From: an uncultured Spirochaetia bacterium
GTDB taxonomy: Bacteria; Desulfobacterota_D; UBA1144; Nemesobacterales; CSP1-2
Length of the DNA: 64,000 bases
Direction of reading: 5' to 3'
Assembly: GCA_964389705.1 (NCBI GenBank)
Contig: CAYMEO010000001.1
Location: 2,591-66,590, forward strand
Below are positions 1-8,395 of this stretch, piece by piece (within the stretch, counting starts at the first letter, position 1; the number at the start of each line of letters is the position of its first letter). The notes under the pieces are model-generated. The model searched no databases. It saw only the letters and a list, made by a program, of their open reading frames with translations, and was not told the origin of the DNA. Made by a program: the position numbers and the translations under genes.

Positions 1-236
1 TTTCTATTTCCTCCTTTTCGTACTGAACAGGACTTACCTTAAAACTGTAGAGAGCTTCTATAAATTCTTGTCTCGAAAGACCAGCTATCTGTGCAGCCCT
101 CTCCTGAGAGATCTTACCAATTTCATACCACTTCACCGCAGCCGCTAATCTCAATTCTTTAGCAAAGCTTTCCGGGTCTTCTTTCACAGCGGAAAAAACA
201 TCTTCAGGAAGTTCAAAAGCTATTTGGGTTGACATA
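1..236 (-). CDS. UPF0175 family antitoxin-like protein (partial; start at 236, 3' end beyond window)
   Basis: Own translation of the minus strand from the ATG at 234-236: MSTQIAFELPEDVFSAVKEDPESFAKELRLAAAVKWYEIGKISQERAAQIAGLSRQEFIEALYSFKVSPVQYEKEEIE. This matches the UPF0175 pattern MST..ELPDDL...GKIS.GKAAELAG.SR.EF.E.L. The ORF runs off the window edge. Confidence 0.5.
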
Positions 237-249
237 ATTTATCCTCCTG

Positions 250-432
250 CTATTTCTTAATTATTGGCTTATATCCTTTTTCATCAAAATGACACTTTAA
301 AGCGTCTTTAATGTTTTCCCTGAGTTCCTCTAAAGTTTCACCTTCTGTGAATATAGAATGTCCAAGGGCTTTGGCGTTATATCCGCCCTCAGGGTCTTCC
401 TCAACCATAAAAATTATCTCTTCTACTTTCAT
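250..432 (-). CDS. HicB-like antitoxin (UPF0150/HicB_lk family) small protein
   Basis: 60 aa ORF. Contains EDPEGGYNAKALGHSIFTEGETLEELRENIKDAL, which matches the HicB-like signature (GGY..P.L.G..T.GET.EEA..NI.EAL). No hicA partner was seen. Confidence 0.55.
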   Translation of the reverse strand: MKVEEIIFMVEEDPEGGYNAKALGHSIFTEGETLEELRENIKDALKCHFDEKGYKPIIKK

Positions 433-435
433 ATC

Positions 436-612
436 TCAGACCTCCCTTGAAATCAAATTTGTTACCCTCTTCTTCCCACTCAGCAAATCATCCATCAATC
501 CCTTTTTCACCCTTTCCAGCTTCTCTTTTTTCTTCCTTAACAACTCCAGCCTCTTATCCACCGTGCTGAGAATCTCAGCGATTTTTTCTGTTCAGAAAGT
601 GGAGGGATCGGT
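436..612 (-). pseudogene. 3' fragment of a second hsdS (Type I RM specificity subunit) gene, frameshifted
   Basis: Minus-strand translation gives (PIPPLSEQKK)/frameshift/IAEILSTVDKRLELLRKKKEKLERVKKGLMDDLLSGKKRVTNLISREV*. This is near-identical in DNA and protein to the C-terminus of hsdS at 1936-2100. The T-run is 6 here (582-587) versus 7 in hsdS. A stop codon lies immediately upstream and there is no N-terminal part. Confidence 0.7.
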
Positions 613-637
613 CAATGCTTTCTCCAATTCATCAATC

Positions 638-856
638 CTATTTTTCTAGAGCGTTAAGTATTCTCTGACGAAGTCCTATTATCGTAAGTCCAACCACTTC
701 CATGGTTTGCGGTTCTACCCTGGCAATTATGCCTTCTCCAATATCCATTCCTTCAGCATTTCTCGGCTCTCCAACAGAGATATAGAGAACATCTGCTTCT
801 GCATCGTATTCCCAGTTTAAATCTTTTTGTTTTTCATTAATCTTCAGGGTTTCCAT
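638..856 (-). CDS. DUF2283 domain protein (antitoxin-like)
   Basis: 72 aa. Contains WEYDAEADVLYISVGEPRNAEG...EGIIARVEPQTMEVVGLTIIGL, matching the DUF2283 pattern Y.YD.E.DALYI.L......E.....GVI.D.D..G..VGIEIL. Confidence 0.6.
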   Translation of the reverse strand: METLKINEKQKDLNWEYDAEADVLYISVGEPRNAEGMDIGEGIIARVEPQTMEVVGLTIIGLRQRILNALEK

Positions 857-886
857 GTTGTATTGAATCTATCTGAACACTGACTA

Positions 887-956
887 TGTCATTCTGAGCG
901 CAGCGAAGAATCTATGGATTTAATGCTGAGATGCTTCACTTCGTTCAGCATGACAA
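887..956. repeat. REP/MITE-like imperfect palindrome, copy A (family GTCATYCTGAGC..GAAGRATC)
   Basis: Left arm TGTCATTCTGAGCGCAGCGAAGAATCT. Loop of about 15 nt. Right arm AGATGCTTCACTTCGTTCAGCATGACA, the inverted complement. Same family as the copies at 3249, 3347, 3744, 5776 and 5879. Confidence 0.7.
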
Positions 957-997
957 ACGGATAATCCTCACCCAGATTTGACATTCCTCCTTTATCA

Positions 998-1273
998 TCA
1001 AAGAGTCCCTAACGCTTTCTCCAATTCATCCTTTTTGAACTCAAGATGGTCGAGCCTCTGTAAATCCTGCCATGTTTCTTTCTCCTCAATCTCACCTTTT
1101 TTGTATCGCTCTTCAAACTCTTCAACCGAAGAAACTCCGTATTTTGTTCTTATCTTAAAAATTTCCGTCTTTATCTCTCTCAGTTTTCTTTCCAGGAAGA
1201 GCCGTAAACTTTCTCTTAGCATCTCTTCCTTTGAAAGATTTAGCTTCTTGGCTAATTCTTCTATTTCCTTCAT
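998..1273 (-). CDS. small charged coiled-coil protein with N-terminal ribbon-helix-helix-like segment (putative antitoxin or transcriptional regulator)
   Basis: 91 aa. The N-terminus MKEIEELAKKLNLSKEEMLRESLRLFLERKL fits an RHH (strand-helix-helix) pattern. The rest is a Glu/Lys-rich helical region. No confident family assignment. The 3' end (DELEKAL) is duplicated as a fragment at 612-640. Confidence 0.35.
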   Translation of the reverse strand: MKEIEELAKKLNLSKEEMLRESLRLFLERKLREIKTEIFKIRTKYGVSSVEEFEERYKKGEIEEKETWQDLQRLDHLEFKKDELEKALGTL

Positions 1274-1314
1274 CTCTAGTTGTGTATCTTACCCCTTGTT
1301 ATAGGTTAATTTTC

Positions 1315-1924
1315 TTAGGGATTCCGTATTACTTTCTCGCTTTTTTCAATATTGTTTGGATTTTCTTTATCTGTTTCCCATTTTATAGGGTTGTTAACAA
1401 TGTATTCCCTTATACGGTTTAAGGATTCTTCATTTCTTATAATATGTTCATAATAATTGCGTTGCCATACAGGCATACCAGGCGTTTTCCGAATTATGTT
1501 TATATGTTTTGCTGAATGCATTTTATACCAACCTACGATTTTGGGAATCAACATTTTTCGGCGGAATTGTTGTAATTGTAGGGGCAATTAGCTTCGCTGA
1601 AATGCCCCACCCGCTACCCGCATTTTCATGAATTGCCCCTACGGAATCCTTGATGATAATGATTCCGTGTATGTGATTTGGCATTATAACAAATTCGTCC
1701 AATTCTACATTTAGAAAATGTTCTGGTATTTCTAACCAGAATTTCCTCACGACTTCCCCAAATGGTGACAATCTAATTAGAGATATGTTGTCATCTATAA
1801 TTTCTCCTAATAAACACTCCTTATTCTTTGTGCATATTGTTATAAAATACGCTCCCGATTTGGAATAGTCGTAATCCCTTAACCTTAGAGAATGTCTATG
1901 ATATTTTTCTCTAAAATCATTCAT
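1315..1924 (-). pseudogene. REP-associated tyrosine transposase (RAYT / IS200-like Y1 transposase), frameshifted
   Basis: Two overlapping ORFs. 1523-1924 encodes the N-terminal part: HRHSLRLRDYDYSKSGAYFITICTKN...VELDEFVIMPNHIHGIIII, with the HUH motif HIH. 1315-1587 encodes the C-terminal part: RRKMLIPKIVGWYKMHSAKHINIIRKTPGMPVWQRNYYEHIIRNEESLNRIREYIVNNP, with the catalytic Tyr region. The frames are joined only across an insertion of about 38 nt at 1588-1625. The gene starts 12 nt after the hsdS stop. Confidence 0.75.
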
Positions 1925-1935
1925 AGTTGATCCCT

Positions 1936-3231
1936 TTATCCTACTTTCACTCTTATTCTCCCACTCAGCAAATCATCCATCAACCCCTTCTTCACCCTTT
2001 CAAGCTTCTCTTTCCTCTTCCTCAACAACTCCAACCTCTTATCCACCGTAGAAAGAATCTCAGCGATTTTTTTCTGTTCGGGAAGGGGAGGGAGGGGGAG
2101 TTTTATCTTTTCTACTTGTGAGCTATTTAAGGCAGGATACTGTCCTCCTACCATCATTTTATTACATTGTTCTATAACAGGTTTTGAGAAGAGAGTATAC
2201 AGTAAATAGAGAGGCAATATTTTTTCTTTGCAAGTTAGTACAGCAAATCCTGTTGAACATATCTGGTTATCATACTCTCTAGGAACAATCGCAAATGCTT
2301 TTAAATATGGACGAACCATAGACATAATAACATCGTTATAATGAATCAATCTTCTTGCTCTTGAAGGAGCTTCTTTTCCAACCATTGCTTTAGCATTTCT
2401 AACAATTCCCCGTCCATTTTCAACAGAGTCAATATCAATATAAAAGAATTGTTTGTCTGGAAATTCTCTTGTAGGGTCTCTTGATTCTTTATTAATATCA
2501 ACTACTTCTTTTAATTCCTTAATCTCCCACTCCTTCGGTATCCTTCCTATATCCGTATCCGTTTGTTTAAATTCTCTTCTCCCCTGTCTACCGTCTACCG
2601 TATTCCGTCTACCAGTCAATAGCTCCTGCATCAAGCCCTTCTTCAGCCTCTCGGTCTTTTCTATGGCTTCATCAACCTTCTCAATGGCTTTATCCACAGT
2701 AGAAAGAATCTCTGCAATTTTTTTCTGTTCGGGAAGTGGAGGGAGAGCAATAGTAATAGCTTCCAATGTACTCTTCCTTATGGATGGTGCCGCTGTCTGT
2801 CCAGCTAGTCGTTTAAGGTCGATTTTCTCTAAAAGATAATAAAACAAAAATTCTGGTTCTATTTCATTTTTTGAAATTAGTCCTGCAACATTGTTGTCAA
2901 AAGTTCCCCAAATTTTTAGAATCCTAAATTTATTTAGGTATGTGGACATTCCAATTTTAGGAAAAATAATTGTGTTTGGTGGACAAATTTTAACCTTCAA
3001 AGTTTCTAAGATCGTATCATCTATAAAATTCTCTGAGTAGCTTATGTATTTAGGAGCAAGATTTAGATCATTTACTTTGATAAAAGGATACTTTCCATCT
3101 TTGTTTCCCTGATACTTTATAGGAAATCCAAATCCACTTACTACTTCTGCTATTTCTCCCAACCTCACCACATCCCACTCCTTCGGTATCCTTCCTATTT
3201 CTGTTTGCTTGAATTCTTGTTGTGTCGTCAT
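1936..3231 (-). CDS. hsdS: Type I restriction-modification system specificity subunit HsdS
   Basis: 431 aa. Two target-recognition domains, each preceded by EFKQT.IGRIPKEW. Two copies of the conserved coiled-coil spacer LPPLPEQKKIAEILSTVDK..E......RLKKGLMQ/DLL. This is the classic duplicated HsdS architecture. Confidence 0.9.
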   Translation of the reverse strand: MTTQQEFKQTEIGRIPKEWDVVRLGEIAEVVSGFGFPIKYQGNKDGKYPFIKVNDLNLAPKYISYSENFIDDTILETLKVKICPPNTIIFPKIGMSTYLNKFRILKIWGTFDNNVAGLISKNEIEPEFLFYYLLEKIDLKRLAGQTAAPSIRKSTLEAITIALPPLPEQKKIAEILSTVDKAIEKVDEAIEKTERLKKGLMQELLTGRRNTVDGRQGRREFKQTDTDIGRIPKEWEIKELKEVVDINKESRDPTREFPDKQFFYIDIDSVENGRGIVRNAKAMVGKEAPSRARRLIHYNDVIMSMVRPYLKAFAIVPREYDNQICSTGFAVLTCKEKILPLYLLYTLFSKPVIEQCNKMMVGGQYPALNSSQVEKIKLPLPPLPEQKKIAEILSTVDKRLELLRKRKEKLERVKKGLMDDLLSGRIRVKVG

Positions 3232-3248
3232 CCTATTTTTGCCTCTTT

Positions 3249-3324
3249 TGTCATTCTGAACGAAGTGAAGAATCTAGGGTTCAATTTAATTTCACTAGAT
3301 CCTTCGCTGTCGCTCAGGATGACA
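3249..3324. repeat. REP/MITE-like palindrome, copy B
   Basis: TGTCATTCTGAACGAAGTGAAGAATCTAG ... CTAGATCCTTCGCTGTCGCTCAGGATGACA, about 28 bp inverted arms. Confidence 0.7.
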
Positions 3325-3346
3325 GATACTATAGACCAGTCCTAGA

Positions 3347-3404
3347 TGTCATTCTGAGCCGAAGGCGAAGAATCTGAGACCCTTCGCTAACGCTCAGGGT
3401 GACA
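3347..3404. repeat. REP/MITE-like palindrome, copy C
   Basis: TGTCATTCTGAGCCGAAGGCGAAGAATCTGAG / ACCCTTCGCTAACGCTCAGGGTGACA, inverted arms. Confidence 0.7.
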
Positions 3405-3438: not shown

Positions 3439-3723
3439 TCATCCTTCACTCAAATCCTTCCATTCTGGATTTATGGATTCAATCAAAGCTATCTTTTTCC
3501 TTCGCAACCATCCCTTGATTTGCTTCTCCCTTGCAATCGCGGCTTGGACATCATCAGTTTCCTCATAATATACTAGCTTTGTGATGTTGTATTTTTTAGT
3601 GAAGCCATCAATCATTTTGTTTTTATGTTCATAGACGCGTCTCATTAGGTCGTTTGTCACACCTGTATATAATGTCTTTGAACGGTTGGTCATTATGTAA
3701 ACATAATATCGGTTCATTTGCAC
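3439..3723 (-). CDS. GIY-YIG nuclease family protein (YhbQ/UPF0213-like small standalone nuclease domain)
   Basis: 94 aa. Motif YVYIMTNRSKTLYTGVTNDLMRRVYEHKN matches GIY-(10-11)-YTG..R...H.. Flanked on both sides by the REP-like palindromes. Confidence 0.85.
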   Translation of the reverse strand: MQMNRYYVYIMTNRSKTLYTGVTNDLMRRVYEHKNKMIDGFTKKYNITKLVYYEETDDVQAAIAREKQIKGWLRRKKIALIESINPEWKDLSEG

Positions 3724-3743: not shown

Positions 3744-3831
3744 TGTCATTCTGAGCCGAAGCGTAGCGAAGGCGAAGAATCCCGGAGTTTGAGATGCTTC
3801 GCTAGATCCTTCGCTGTTGCTCAGGATGACA
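3744..3831. repeat. REP/MITE-like palindrome, copy D
   Basis: TGTCATTCTGAGCCGAAGCGTAGCGAAGGCGAAGAATCCCGGAG / ...GATCCTTCGCTGTTGCTCAGGATGACA. Confidence 0.7.
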
Positions 3832-5775: not shown

Positions 5776-5845
5776 TGTCATCCTGAGCGGTAGCGAAGGA
5801 TCTACCTCTTCTGGCTTCTTTGTCGCTTCGCTCCTCAGAATGACA
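5776..5845. repeat. REP/MITE-like palindrome, copy E
   Basis: TGTCATCCTGAGCGGTAGCGAAGGATCTACC ... TGTCGCTTCGCTCCTCAGAATGACA. Confidence 0.65.
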
Positions 5846-5878: not shown

Positions 5879-5990
5879 GTCACTCTGAGCACATTCATTA
5901 TTATTCAGTGTAAACTCCGCGAAGAATCTCGGAGTGCTAGACCCTTCGCGGAGTTTACACTGAATAAGGCACGCCCTGAGTGCAACCGAA
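5879..5990. repeat. REP/MITE-like element, copy F, with nested perfect 19 bp inverted repeat
   Basis: GTCACTCTGAGC...CAGTGTAAACTCCGCGAAG AATCTCGGAGTGCTAGACC CTTCGCGGAGTTTACACTG...GCCCTGAGTGCAAC. Confidence 0.65.
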
Positions 5991-6066
5991 GGGTGAATGT
6001 GTTTGGAATGATAACACTAAATGCAAAGTTTGACTCATCTTCAACTCTAATTTAACCTAAACCCGC

Positions 6067-7467
6067 ATGAGTGTGAGAACGAGATTTGCTCCAAGCCCAA
6101 CGGGGGCGCTCCATATAGGCGGGGCAAGGACTGCGATCTTTAACTGGCTTTTTGCAAGGCACTATGGCGGAAAATTTATTCTCCGAATTGAAGACACAGA
6201 TCGTGCCCGCTCTACCGAAGAATCTGTATCTGAGATATTAGATGGCATGACATGGCTCGGACTCAATTGGGATGAGGGTCCGTTCAGGCAGTCCGATAGA
6301 CTCTCTATTTACCAGGAATATGCCGAAAGGCTCCTTCAGTCTGGAAAGGCATACAGATGCTATTGCACGCCAGATGAGCTTGATAGGAGAAGGAAAGAGG
6401 CGGAAAAACAGGGAAGGATCTACAGATACGAGGGCACATGCAGAAGTCTGAAATCCAATCCCCTAGATAAGCCCTTTGCTATCCGTCTTATGACTCCTGA
6501 GGTGGGGACCATTGAGGTTGATGATTTAATTAGGGGAATTATCCATTTTGATGCCAAAGAGATTGACGATTTTGTTATTCAAAAGACAGATGGGTTTCCG
6601 ACATATAACTTTGCCGTAGTAATTGATGATGCCACTATGGATATAACCCACGTCATACGCGGGGACGACCATATTGCAAACACCCCAAAACAGATCCTCA
6701 TATATGAGGCGTTATCTCAAGGGATTCCCAAATTCGCTCATGTCTCAATGATTCTTGGCTCTGATAAGGCAAGACTAAGCAAGAGACACGGCGCTACCTC
6801 GGTCATTGCATATAGGGAGATGGGCTATCTTCCGGAGGCGGTTGTAAACTATCTTGCCCGTCTCGGCTGGTCTTATGGGGATCAAGAGATCTTTTCAAAA
6901 GAAGAGTTGATTGAGAAATTCACGCTTGAGAATGTGGGGAAATCTGCTGCCGTTTTTAATCCTGAAAAACTCTTATGGCTAAACGGTTGGTATATAAGAA
7001 ACAAACCGGCTGAGGAGATTGCGAGGCTTCTGATTCCGTTCCTACAAAAGAAGGGATTTCAGGTTGCTTTCGATGAGAGGCTTATAAAGATCGTAAGTGT
7101 ACTTCGAGAAAGGGCAAAGACACTCCTAGAGCTCGCTGACTCTGCGCAATATTTCTTCACCGATGAAATCAAGTATGAAGAGGTGGCTCGAAAGAAGTTT
7201 CTTACATCCGATGCGCTTCCGATTCTTGAAGAACTCATAAATAGGCTCTCTTCCCTTCATGATTTTACGGCCCCAGAGCTGCAAAGGATATTTGGAGAAA
7301 TTACGGAGAGGAGGGGAATAAAGCTCATTCAAATCGCCCAGCCAACAAGGGTTGCTCTTACCGGAGGAACGGTAAGCCCTGGAATCTTCGAGGTAATGGA
7401 GATTCTAGGAAAGGATAGGGTGATAGAGAGATTAAAAAGGGCAGTCTCCTATATTTCAAAAAATTAA
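6067..7467 (+). CDS. gltX: glutamyl-tRNA synthetase
   Basis: 466 aa. RFAPSPTGALHIGGARTA (HIGH motif). ...RLSKRHGA (KMSKS-like motif). Typical GltX length. Confidence 0.95.
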   Translation: MSVRTRFAPSPTGALHIGGARTAIFNWLFARHYGGKFILRIEDTDRARSTEESVSEILDGMTWLGLNWDEGPFRQSDRLSIYQEYAERLLQSGKAYRCYCTPDELDRRRKEAEKQGRIYRYEGTCRSLKSNPLDKPFAIRLMTPEVGTIEVDDLIRGIIHFDAKEIDDFVIQKTDGFPTYNFAVVIDDATMDITHVIRGDDHIANTPKQILIYEALSQGIPKFAHVSMILGSDKARLSKRHGATSVIAYREMGYLPEAVVNYLARLGWSYGDQEIFSKEELIEKFTLENVGKSAAVFNPEKLLWLNGWYIRNKPAEEIARLLIPFLQKKGFQVAFDERLIKIVSVLRERAKTLLELADSAQYFFTDEIKYEEVARKKFLTSDALPILEELINRLSSLHDFTAPELQRIFGEITERRGIKLIQIAQPTRVALTGGTVSPGIFEVMEILGKDRVIERLKRAVSYISKN

Positions 7468-7537: not shown

Positions 7538-8395
7538 TCAATACTTATAGAACCCCCTTCCCGTTTTTCTCCCCAGCCATCCTGCACGAACCATCTGACG
7601 TAGAAGCGGTGCAGCACGGAATTTTGGGTCTTTAAACTCGCGGTATAGGACATCTATTACATCGAGGGTTACATCGAGTCCTATGAGGTCTATGAGTGCA
7701 AGGGGTCCGATTGGCTGGTTCGTTCCGAGCTTCATTGCTTTGTCAATGTCCTCGGGTGTTCCCACCCCTTCTTCAAGGGCAAATACCGCCTCATTGAGCA
7801 TGGGCATGAGAAGACGGTTTACTATAAATCCGGGGACGTCTTTTGTTCTAACCGGGTCCTTTCCAAGGGCCTTGGCGAAGTTATAGGCGAATTCCGCTGT
7901 TTCATCCGATGTTGCAAGGCTCCTTACTACCTCTACGAGCTTCATAATAGGGGCTGGATTAAAAAAGTGCATCCCTACTACTTTATCGGGTCTTTTTGTA
8001 TTTACGGCAATTTCTATAATTGGAAGCGAAGATGTATTTGTAGCAAGTATGACATCCGGGCGTGTAAATGAATCCAATTTTTTAAAGGTCTCCTTTTTTA
8101 CATCCATGTTTTCAAATACGGCCTCTATAACTAAATCAACATCACCTAAATCCTCAAACTTTGTAGTTGTGTGGATTCGGGATAAGATGGAATTTCTGTC
8201 TTCCTCTTTTATTTCTCCCTTTTTTACGAACCTCCCTAGACTATCCCCTATTGTCTTTATTCCACGACTGAGTGCGGAATCAGAAACATCTAAGAGAACA
8301 ACATCCTTGCCATTTGAAGCTATAACCTGAGCGATCCCAGAGCCCATTGTCCCTGCTCCTAGAACACCTACCTTTTTCACATCCTCTACATTCAT
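7538..8395 (-). CDS. 3-hydroxyacyl-CoA / 3-hydroxybutyryl-CoA dehydrogenase (NAD-dependent)
   Basis: 285 aa. N-terminal Rossmann motif VGVLGAGTMGSGIAQV. Family-typical residues across the full length. Confidence 0.85.
   Translation of the reverse strand: MNVEDVKKVGVLGAGTMGSGIAQVIASNGKDVVLLDVSDSALSRGIKTIGDSLGRFVKKGEIKEEDRNSILSRIHTTTKFEDLGDVDLVIEAVFENMDVKKETFKKLDSFTRPDVILATNTSSLPIIEIAVNTKRPDKVVGMHFFNPAPIMKLVEVVRSLATSDETAEFAYNFAKALGKDPVRTKDVPGFIVNRLLMPMLNEAVFALEEGVGTPEDIDKAMKLGTNQPIGPLALIDLIGLDVTLDVIDVLYREFKDPKFRAAPLLRQMVRAGWLGRKTGRGFYKY

Follow-up and report, generated by a model that had tools for sequence, protein, structure and literature searches.

Organisation of the hsd locus and the orphan hsdS fragment

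The stretch of DNA analysed here, hereafter the window, comprises 64,000 nucleotides (nt; 64 kb) of contig CAYMEO010000001.1 from an uncultured Spirochaetia bacterium (GCA_964389705.1). At its left end lies a Type I restriction-modification locus which contains, besides a full-length hsdS gene, an orphan hsdS 3' fragment at 436-611. This fragment, termed the relic below, is the subject of the present analysis. Coordinates are positions in the window, and gene sense is the minus strand unless stated otherwise. In minus-strand order, the left end of the window carries hsdM, a GIY-YIG gene, REP (repetitive extragenic palindromic)-like palindromes, hsdS, a split gene for a REP-associated tyrosine transposase (RAYT), the ribbon-helix-helix (RHH) gene RHH91, a REP-like pair, a DUF2283 gene, the relic, a hicB-family gene (hicB') and a UPF0175 gene. 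On the full contig, reached by exact protein look-up, UPF0175 is followed beyond the window edge by DUF3368 and then hsdR. Taken as a whole, the region forms a single Type I restriction-modification operon into which several small genes have been inserted. Its features are listed below, with TRD for target recognition domain, CR for conserved region, ORF for open reading frame and aa for amino acids.

5610-3853, minus strand: hsdM
3723-3439, minus strand: GIY-YIG gene
1936-3231, minus strand: resident full-length hsdS, 431 aa, matching Pfam PF01420 in two stretches and containing internal repeats
about 2746-3170: TRD1 of the resident hsdS, following its N-terminal conserved part
2560-2745: CR1 plus linker of the resident hsdS
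2101-2559: TRD2 of the resident hsdS, called TRD_A
1936-2100: CR2' of the resident hsdS with its own tail, GRIRVKVG and stop
1315-1924, minus strand: RAYT pseudogene, ORFs of 133 aa and 90 aa, partial matches to NCBIfam NF047646 and Pfam Y1_Tnp
998-1273, minus strand: RHH91, RHH antitoxin-like gene, 91 aa, Pfam RHH_1
887-957: REP-like palindromic pair (GTCATTCTGAGCG...), between RHH91 and DUF2283
638-856, minus strand: DUF2283 gene, 72 aa, solitary and antitoxin-like, Pfam PF10049 (E = 3.7e-6)
612-637, minus strand: scrap of RHH91 (RHH91'), core 614-633, between the DUF2283 stop codon (638-640) and the relic
436-611, minus strand: the relic, with CR2 at about 473-611 and a tail (...GKKRVTNLISREV and stop) at 436-472
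582-587: homopolymer run, 6 T on the plus strand and 6 A in gene sense
250-432, minus strand: hicB', HicB-family antitoxin gene, 60 aa, starting 3 nt after the relic stop codon, as in relatives
2-235, minus strand: UPF0175 gene, running off the window edge

An earlier reading made from the letters alone (the sequence-only reading) had described an HsdS C-terminal fragment at 436-612 whose frame is broken by a T-run one base shorter than that of the resident gene, and both points are confirmed. The relic consists of CR2 and tail only, with the hicB ribosome-binding site GGAGG carried in the tail, and its HsdS homology starts at PIPPLSEQ (about 611). The A-run at 582-587 is 6 long, against 7 in the resident hsdS, in the central repeat of the resident hsdS and in all intact hsdS genes fetched of the type found in contig L007 (genes of the L015 type read AAGAAAA), and the run shortened by one nt results in a TGA just upstream. 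When one A was restored, the relic peptide IPPLSEQKKIAEILSTVDKRLELLRKKKEKLERVKKGLMDDLLSGKKRVTNLISREV, ending in a stop, matched positions 136-168 of 168 (the last 33) of PF01420 with a score of 33.1 bits against a cutoff of 22. As regards the marks of a functional hsdS gene, the relic has no TRD, no start codon and no open frame.

The similarity to the 3' end of the resident gene, which the same reading had called nearly identical (to 1962-2100), is real but was overstated. Relic positions 474-607 aligned with 1959-2093 at 88.9% over 135 nt with one gap (E = 9e-45), the ungapped alignment gave 90% over 114 nt, and in tblastn the relic matched resident HsdS residues 388-428 at 92.7% over 41 aa. 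This similarity covers the conserved region alone and is equalled by the alleles of other genomes, the identity of the relic CR2 core being 88.7% to the resident hsdS, 88.0% to L007 and 88.7% to L015. Moreover, 12 codons differ between relic and resident, 8 of them synonymously, including an AGC/TCT serine switch. The similar distance to all alleles and the mostly synonymous codon differences indicate that the relic CR2 diverged while it was part of a working gene. On sequence grounds, the relic is read as the remnant of another hsdS allele and not as a recent copy of the end of the resident gene. A recent duplication within the genome, which would make the fragment a degraded local copy of 1962-2100, is consistent with a direct repeat of 135 nt and 88.9% identity lying 1.5 kb away on the same strand, but the other alleles resemble the fragment as closely as the resident does, most of the differences are synonymous, and the relic tail shows no homology to the resident tail (GRIRVKVG) and matches the hsdS-hicB junction of relatives instead, so that this origin is regarded as quite improbable. 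A closest-protein search with the fragment returned 17 short HsdS C-terminal ORFs, including the relics P0008 and P0016, and no full-length parent gene.

Immediately 5' of the relic in gene sense, positions 614-633 are a copy of the 3' end of RHH91 (1011-1030) in 19 of 20 bases, and no match with two or fewer mismatches to this scrap was found in 100 shuffles. The scrap reads (I)DELEKAL, as in the ...KKDELEKALGTL and stop that ends the 91-aa protein, so the claim that 612-640 repeats the C-terminal end of this protein, fused to the hsdS fragment, holds. RHH homology ends at about 613 and HsdS homology begins at about 611, the two meeting head-to-tail within 2-3 nt.

The junction sequence GAATTGGAGAAAGCATTGACCGATCCCTCC was found base-for-base identical in Logan contig DRR163687 (L005; 100% to window 550-3238), and the junction was also present in ENA ERZ1669417 (L001, 99.9%) and, as a 30-nt exact match, in the diverged contig L045 (SRR24490440). 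The region is rich in repeats and short-read contigs break there, which could point to a chimeric join made at repeated hsdS sequence during assembly, but the recurrence of the same junction in these independent data sets and in the source of the window refutes such an artefact, which is hardly credible. A scan of JGI metagenomes for the junction GGAGAAAGCNTTGACCGATCCCTCC gave no further junction-bearing contig. Its single match, the GC-rich JGI contig L042, was rejected as unrelated, having just 29 nt in common; at L042 891-919, 27 of 29 nt are as in the junction and encode ...NALEKALTDPS..., which was taken as chance.

Syntenic loci were obtained from the contigs of the two closest HicB proteins. 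In these relatives, the order is 3HCDH, gltX, hsdM, GIY-YIG, hsdS (413 or 409 aa), hicB (72 aa), hicA (83 aa), hsdR, ygjP, DUF2207 and LemA. An intact hsdS lies directly before hicB-hicA-hsdR-ygjP in L007, L009 and L010 (L007 type) and in L015-L018 (L015 type), to which partial or split contigs are to be added. The intact hsdS genes end in ...KRVTNLISREV and stop, followed by GGAGGTCTGAGAT-ATG of hicB, and the relic with hicB' is colinear with this tail plus GGAGGTCTGAGATATG. L007 5825-6150 matched the window genome at 93.6% over 326 nt, and the tail, ribosome-binding site and hicB start agreed between relic and L007 in 46 of 48 nt. This colinearity with the relatives indicates that the 3' part of the relic sits at the position of a native hsdS 3' end. 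The relic is a pseudogene in the usual sense, being colinear with an intact orthologue in L007 and L015, truncated, and showing signs of relaxed constraint.

The block shared with lineage L045

The closest full-length relative of the resident HsdS was P0139, encoded on L045, in which TRD1 is different while the CR1 linker, TRD2, CR2' and tail are the same. The gene order on L045 is DUF3644, hsdS, an intact RAYT (194 aa), RHH (95 aa), REP, DUF2283, an RHH' scrap and an hsdS CR2 relic, followed by a bAvd/23S-IVP cassette between GTAGACAG repeats, a full-length hicB, an MNT gene, hsdR, ygjP and DUF2207. L045 1833-4049 aligned with window positions of about 2745-474 at 91.9% over 2274 nt, and the flanking hsdR genes are just 78% identical, indicating an exchange of this block between lineages. 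About 2.3 kb long, it comprises hsdS CR1, TRD_A, CR2' with tail and stop, RAYT, RHH, the REP pair, DUF2283, 20-26 nt of RHH scrap and the 5' part of CR2. The viral contigs and plasmids searched for it contained no carrier.

Along the block, identity between the window and L045 was 98.9% in TRD_A and 91.5% in CR2' for the hsdS part; 92.6% in RAYT, 89.9% in RHH, 99.3% in REP and 98.2% in DUF2283 for the accessory part; and 96% in RHH' and 88.5% in the relic core for the scar. Of all these segments the relic core has diverged most, and the relic tail has no counterpart. The A-run is 8 long in the L045 relic and 6 long in the window relic, so that its length drifts both ways, as expected of an unselected pseudogene. 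The inserted bAvd cassette stands between relic and hicB in L045, leaving just the last ~20 nt beside hicB.

The shared similarity extends from CR1 (about 2745) into the relic (to about 474), so that both ends, in CR1 and inside CR2, fall in conserved hsdS sequence. Within the relic, the 5' 70 nt are closest to the L045 relic (94%), the 3' part is 82% identical to L045, and the tail is 96% identical to L007. The relic thus appears chimeric, with a 5' part of block type and a 3' part and tail of the native hsdS-hicB type. TRD_A, in turn, shows 86% nucleotide identity to TRD1 of L007 (4783-5363); it occupies position 2 in the resident HsdS and position 1 in L007, P0142, P0143 and P0145 (75-83% aa identity over the aligned part), and by this comparison the TRD has changed position within hsdS. 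As for the suggestion that hsdS halves are exchanged by recombination, recombination at conserved regions between lineages is therefore upheld (TRD_A in position 2 versus 1), and a phase-variable mode of exchange found no support.

Short GTAGAC(A/G)G repeats were observed in frame within the hsdS CR1 linker (2584-2612), where they encode RRNTVDGRQGRR. The same repeats are present in L045 (1966-1994 and 4068-4725), where they flank the bAvd/23S-rRNA-IVP gene, and in L019 at 7952-7973, just downstream of an apparently similar 126-aa ORF. A small mobile cassette within hsdS may have left them as its footprint.

We are fairly confident that the feature is a non-coding recombination scar, the dead leftover of an hsdS 3' end within a Type I operon, rather than a device for switching. 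The junctions had been proposed to reflect deletion and recombination involving two hsdS-containing units, and the involvement of recombination junctions and of two hsdS alleles is supported. In the history proposed here, an illegitimate join in some ancestor would have produced the junction between RHH' and CR2 and with it a block bounded by hsdS conserved regions; the RHH scrap may have been copied as a short templated filler from the RHH gene 400 nt distant, or it may be what is left of another RHH copy. Homologous recombination would then have carried the block from one related Type I locus to another, with one crossover in CR1 and the other inside CR2, between the partial CR2 of the block and the recipient's own CR2. 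Such an exchange would have replaced the second TRD of the recipient and left a chimeric dead CR2 before hicB. What survives here of the native-type hsdS is its last 175 nt (CR2, tail and hicB ribosome-binding site), still attached to hicB.

Several points weigh against this history. The chimeric assignment of the relic depends on few sites (4/69 versus 12/66 mismatches), and gene conversion from other CR copies could give the same relic pattern. With two block-bearing lineages, the transfer may have gone either way, and either the window or L045 may have the older right-hand end. The RHH scrap fits a 20-nt duplication flanking an insertion of REP and DUF2283 equally well, and the stretch of low divergence between window and L045 (about 1050-600, 98%) is bounded by the two 20-mer copies. 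The survival of the relic across a lineage divergence of 8-12% could hint at a selected role, for example in keeping translation or transcription signals for hicB'-hsdR. The same end state would also be reached by Campbell-type integration of a circular copy through CR2 or by gene conversion among CR copies.

Possible switching, excision and residual function

The sequence-only reading had likened the fragment to the exchangeable hsdS halves of phase-variable Type I systems. An extra partial hsdS near an expressed hsdS, with small toxin-antitoxin (TA)-like genes close by, superficially resembles the pneumococcal loci (PMC7394358, PMC6265443), and in an inverting, shufflon-like system the fragment would be a silent hsdS' cassette exchanging with the expressed gene. 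What characterises inverting phase-variable systems is another, TRD-bearing hsdS that has inverted repeats in common with the expressed gene and lies within 30 kb of it, usually along with a recombinase (PMC7394358). By contrast, blastn and tblastn searches with hsdS found no inverted hsdS repeat in the 64 kb window, all matches being plus/plus, and exchange with a fragment that has no TRD could not change specificity. The genes extending from gltX to hsdR, ygjP and LemA, about 10 kb to each side, likewise include no invertase or integrase, the sole candidate being the broken RAYT. The arrangement was the same in every assembly covering the locus, two of which cover it fully and one just its hsdR-proximal part. 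The check for alternative hsdS arrangements in assemblies of related strains that had been suggested thus gave none within the covering assemblies, and mosaicism between lineages was seen in L045. The resemblance to SpnD39III/ivr of Streptococcus pneumoniae and to the silent hsdS' copies of S. suis (PMC7394358) lies in a partial hsdS near an expressed one with a conserved region in common; the copies in those systems carry alternative TRDs in inverted orientation with inverted repeats and usually a recombinase encoded at the locus, whereas the copy here is direct, has no TRD and is accompanied by no recombinase. An inverting system is accordingly judged very improbable.

Ongoing recombination between the direct repeats CR2' 1959-2093 and relic 474-607, either as tvr-like excision or as RecA-mediated deletion, would loop out RAYT-RHH-DUF2283 and swap the C-terminal tail of HsdS in part of the population. 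The repeats are indeed direct, 135 nt long and 89% identical. In the tvr locus (SpnIV) of S. pneumoniae, parts of hsdS are reshuffled by way of direct repeats and of circular intermediates; the locus contains TA homologues and the tyrosine recombinase TvrR, and it places TRDs on the excised circle (PMC6265443). In addition, two Logan contigs end inside the relic, at 550 (L005) and at 568 (L003). However, the L003 start (568) is the exact k=31 branch point of window-type and L045-type relics, which means that co-occurring strains explain this break and no rearrangement is required; the branch explains the L003 start and not the L005 end. The run of L003 (SRR24490441) has an accession adjacent to that of L045 (SRR24490440), and strains of both types probably co-occur in SRR24490440 and SRR24490441. 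No deletion product was present in any assembly, and the longest perfect identity between the repeats is about 28 nt as read by eye from the alignment. The locus shares with tvr the direct hsdS repeats flanking a segment with TA-homologue genes and a recombinase-type gene, but TvrR, defined repeats and TRDs in the circle, which bring about the change of specificity in tvr (PMC6265443), are replaced here by a broken HUH-type RAYT and a segment with no TRD, and neither a circle nor a deletion form was observed. Such recombination is considered unlikely.

With the feature read as a scar, the relic would most likely be transcribed as an untranslated operon spacer. No sigma-70-like promoter or terminator was predicted on the minus strand of 436-640, an Rfam search of 436-640 gave no family match, and a hairpin with T-run at 564-580 on the plus strand is within chance (4 found, 2.5 expected). 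No minus-strand ORF crosses the junction, and the sole minus-strand ORF of the relic is a 41-aa ORF with GTG at 561 and no Shine-Dalgarno sequence upstream. The sole plausible residual role is that of carrying the ribosome-binding site of hicB', and the constrained part is the last ~20 nt with this site, the sole piece still beside hicB in L045.

The relic might nevertheless have been kept as functional, either as a source of promoter or translation signals for hicB'-UPF0175-DUF3368-hsdR or by encoding, in the 41-aa ORF, a coiled-coil peptide that disturbs HsdS-HsdM assembly. Retention in two lineages 8-12% diverged and the position of the hicB ribosome-binding site within the last 20 nt of the relic speak for such a role, as does the fact that the CR2 helix of HsdS is a coiled-coil element. 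Against it stand the lack of a promoter-like site on the minus strand of 436-640 and of a Shine-Dalgarno sequence before the GTG, the relic core as the fastest-diverging part of the block with A-run and tail differing between lineages, and the L045 relic, which is cut off from hicB by the bAvd cassette with ~20 nt kept. Maintenance for function is considered improbable.

The best match to known biology is the exchange of TRDs by homologous recombination in hsdS conserved regions, with a scar left due to the extra genes carried. Natural hsdS hybrids arise by recombination in conserved regions, as in the Salmonella hybrid StySQ from StySP and StySB and in lactococcal hsdS cassette exchange. The likeness consists in conserved-region crossovers that move whole TRDs, to which the block boundaries in CR1 and CR2 and the position shift of TRD_A correspond; the segment exchanged here differs in adding a stop codon, three accessory genes and a second partial CR2, leaving a dead CR2 and no clean hybrid. 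Accessory genes embedded in Type I operons are also known, such as the anticodon nuclease gene prrC in the E. coli prr hsd locus. As in loci of that kind, unrelated small genes of defence or TA type lie co-oriented between the hsd genes, but three of the four modules here are orphan antitoxin-like genes, and a functional link between the cassettes and the restriction enzyme would be hypothetical. Finally, homology-facilitated illegitimate recombination combines one homologous anchor with one illegitimate join and would explain how the junction between RHH' and CR2 arose beside a homologous hsdS segment, as one of several possible ways.

Accessory genes and the wider pattern

L045 has an uninterrupted RAYT gene of 194 aa; relative to it, the window copy contains a 37-nt insertion at 1590-1626 that splits it into two ORFs. 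The REP-like motif GTCATYCTGARCG occurs nine times in the 64 kb window, each time within the hsd locus (0.16 expected by chance), in gaps between gene modules at 888-954, 3250-3403, 3745-3830 and 5777-5789. A long near-perfect palindrome upstream of hsdM (5885-5980; arms 5901-5929 and 5939-5967) gave sub-threshold Rfam matches to miRNA families and is a REP-type hairpin, not a known RNA family.

Three antitoxin-like genes are without a toxin partner, namely RHH91 without TumE, the solitary DUF2283 and the truncated HicB without HicA, and they adjoin one apparently intact pair, UPF0175-DUF3368. In the window, no TumE toxin gene follows RHH91, its place being taken by the REP pair and DUF2283. 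RHH91 homologues in L019, L020 and L026 are followed by an ORF of 111-123 aa that overlaps or abuts the RHH stop; the 123-aa ORF of L020 scored as TumE (PF20126), and those of L019 and L026 resemble it by sequence. These pairs of RHH and TumE-type ORFs lie between hsdS and hsdR in a Nitrospirota metagenome-assembled genome (MAG; L019), a deltaproteobacterial MAG (L020) and Ca. Scalindua rubra (L026). In a scan of GTDB genomes with RHH91, the best match reached 87% aa identity, and the relatives belonged to Nitrospirota, Deltaproteobacteria, Brocadiales and others.

Further junctions were observed elsewhere in the operon. hicB' (60 aa, against 72 aa in the family) is identical to P0019 through residue 50 and then divergent, and the UPF0175-DUF3368 pair (L001 12950-13751) stands where the relatives have the 3' end of hicB, hicA and the first ~24 nt of hsdR, the boundary between hicB' and this pair being a second replacement junction. 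Between hsdM and hsdS the operon has a further variable cassette position, occupied by GIY-YIG (3439-3723) in the window and in the L007 type and by a different RAYT (159 aa, L015 3928-4407) in L015 and L016; derivation of the window RAYT from the latter was rejected, with just ~72% identity over 86 nt of the catalytic motif. The hsdR of L001 (13752-15821) is 99.3% identical to that of L007 (6487-8556), and identity to L007 is 91.6% for gltX-hsdM-GIY and 84.9% for 3HCDH (L001 5766-10059 against L007 543-4814). Judged by these identities, the operon is mosaic, its segments having had different histories.

Orphan CR fragments were also encountered outside these lineages, in biased searches that make them anecdotal examples and no survey. 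Ca. Scalindua rubra has a co-oriented orphan hsdS CR2 fragment (L026 5217-5378) between hsdS and hsdR, and L043 carries at 6001-6213 an ORF (P0016) that fuses an hsdR N-terminal part to an hsdS CR, again between hsdS and hsdR. P0008 is another fusion of this hsdR-N::hsdS-CR kind, located beside a DUF433/PIN pair on a short contig without hsdS or hsdR. These orphan CR relics have different 5' ends, which favours illegitimate joins over a specific recombination site.

Taken on its own, the relic is an ordinary pseudogene scar in a mosaic operon, and the annotation appropriate to it is that of an hsdS pseudogene fragment, neither a second specificity gene nor a phase-variation cassette. As such, it marks a Type I operon whose present form arose by recombination within conserved hsdS regions, and it documents the joint transfer of a TRD and accessory antitoxin-like genes between lineages with hsdR genes of just 78% identity. 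A more general idea, which we put forward tentatively and with more doubt than belief, is that a partial CR2 acts as a portable homology arm on the right and CR1 as its counterpart on the left, so that a TRD and accessory TA-like genes can be swapped between related Type I operons. If this were true, orphan relics of hsdS and of the hsdR 5' end would mark the build-up of accessory-gene arrays between hsdS and hsdR across phyla, and if the pattern were general, it would provide a simple, recombinase-free route by which defence and TA cassettes accumulate inside Type I operons.

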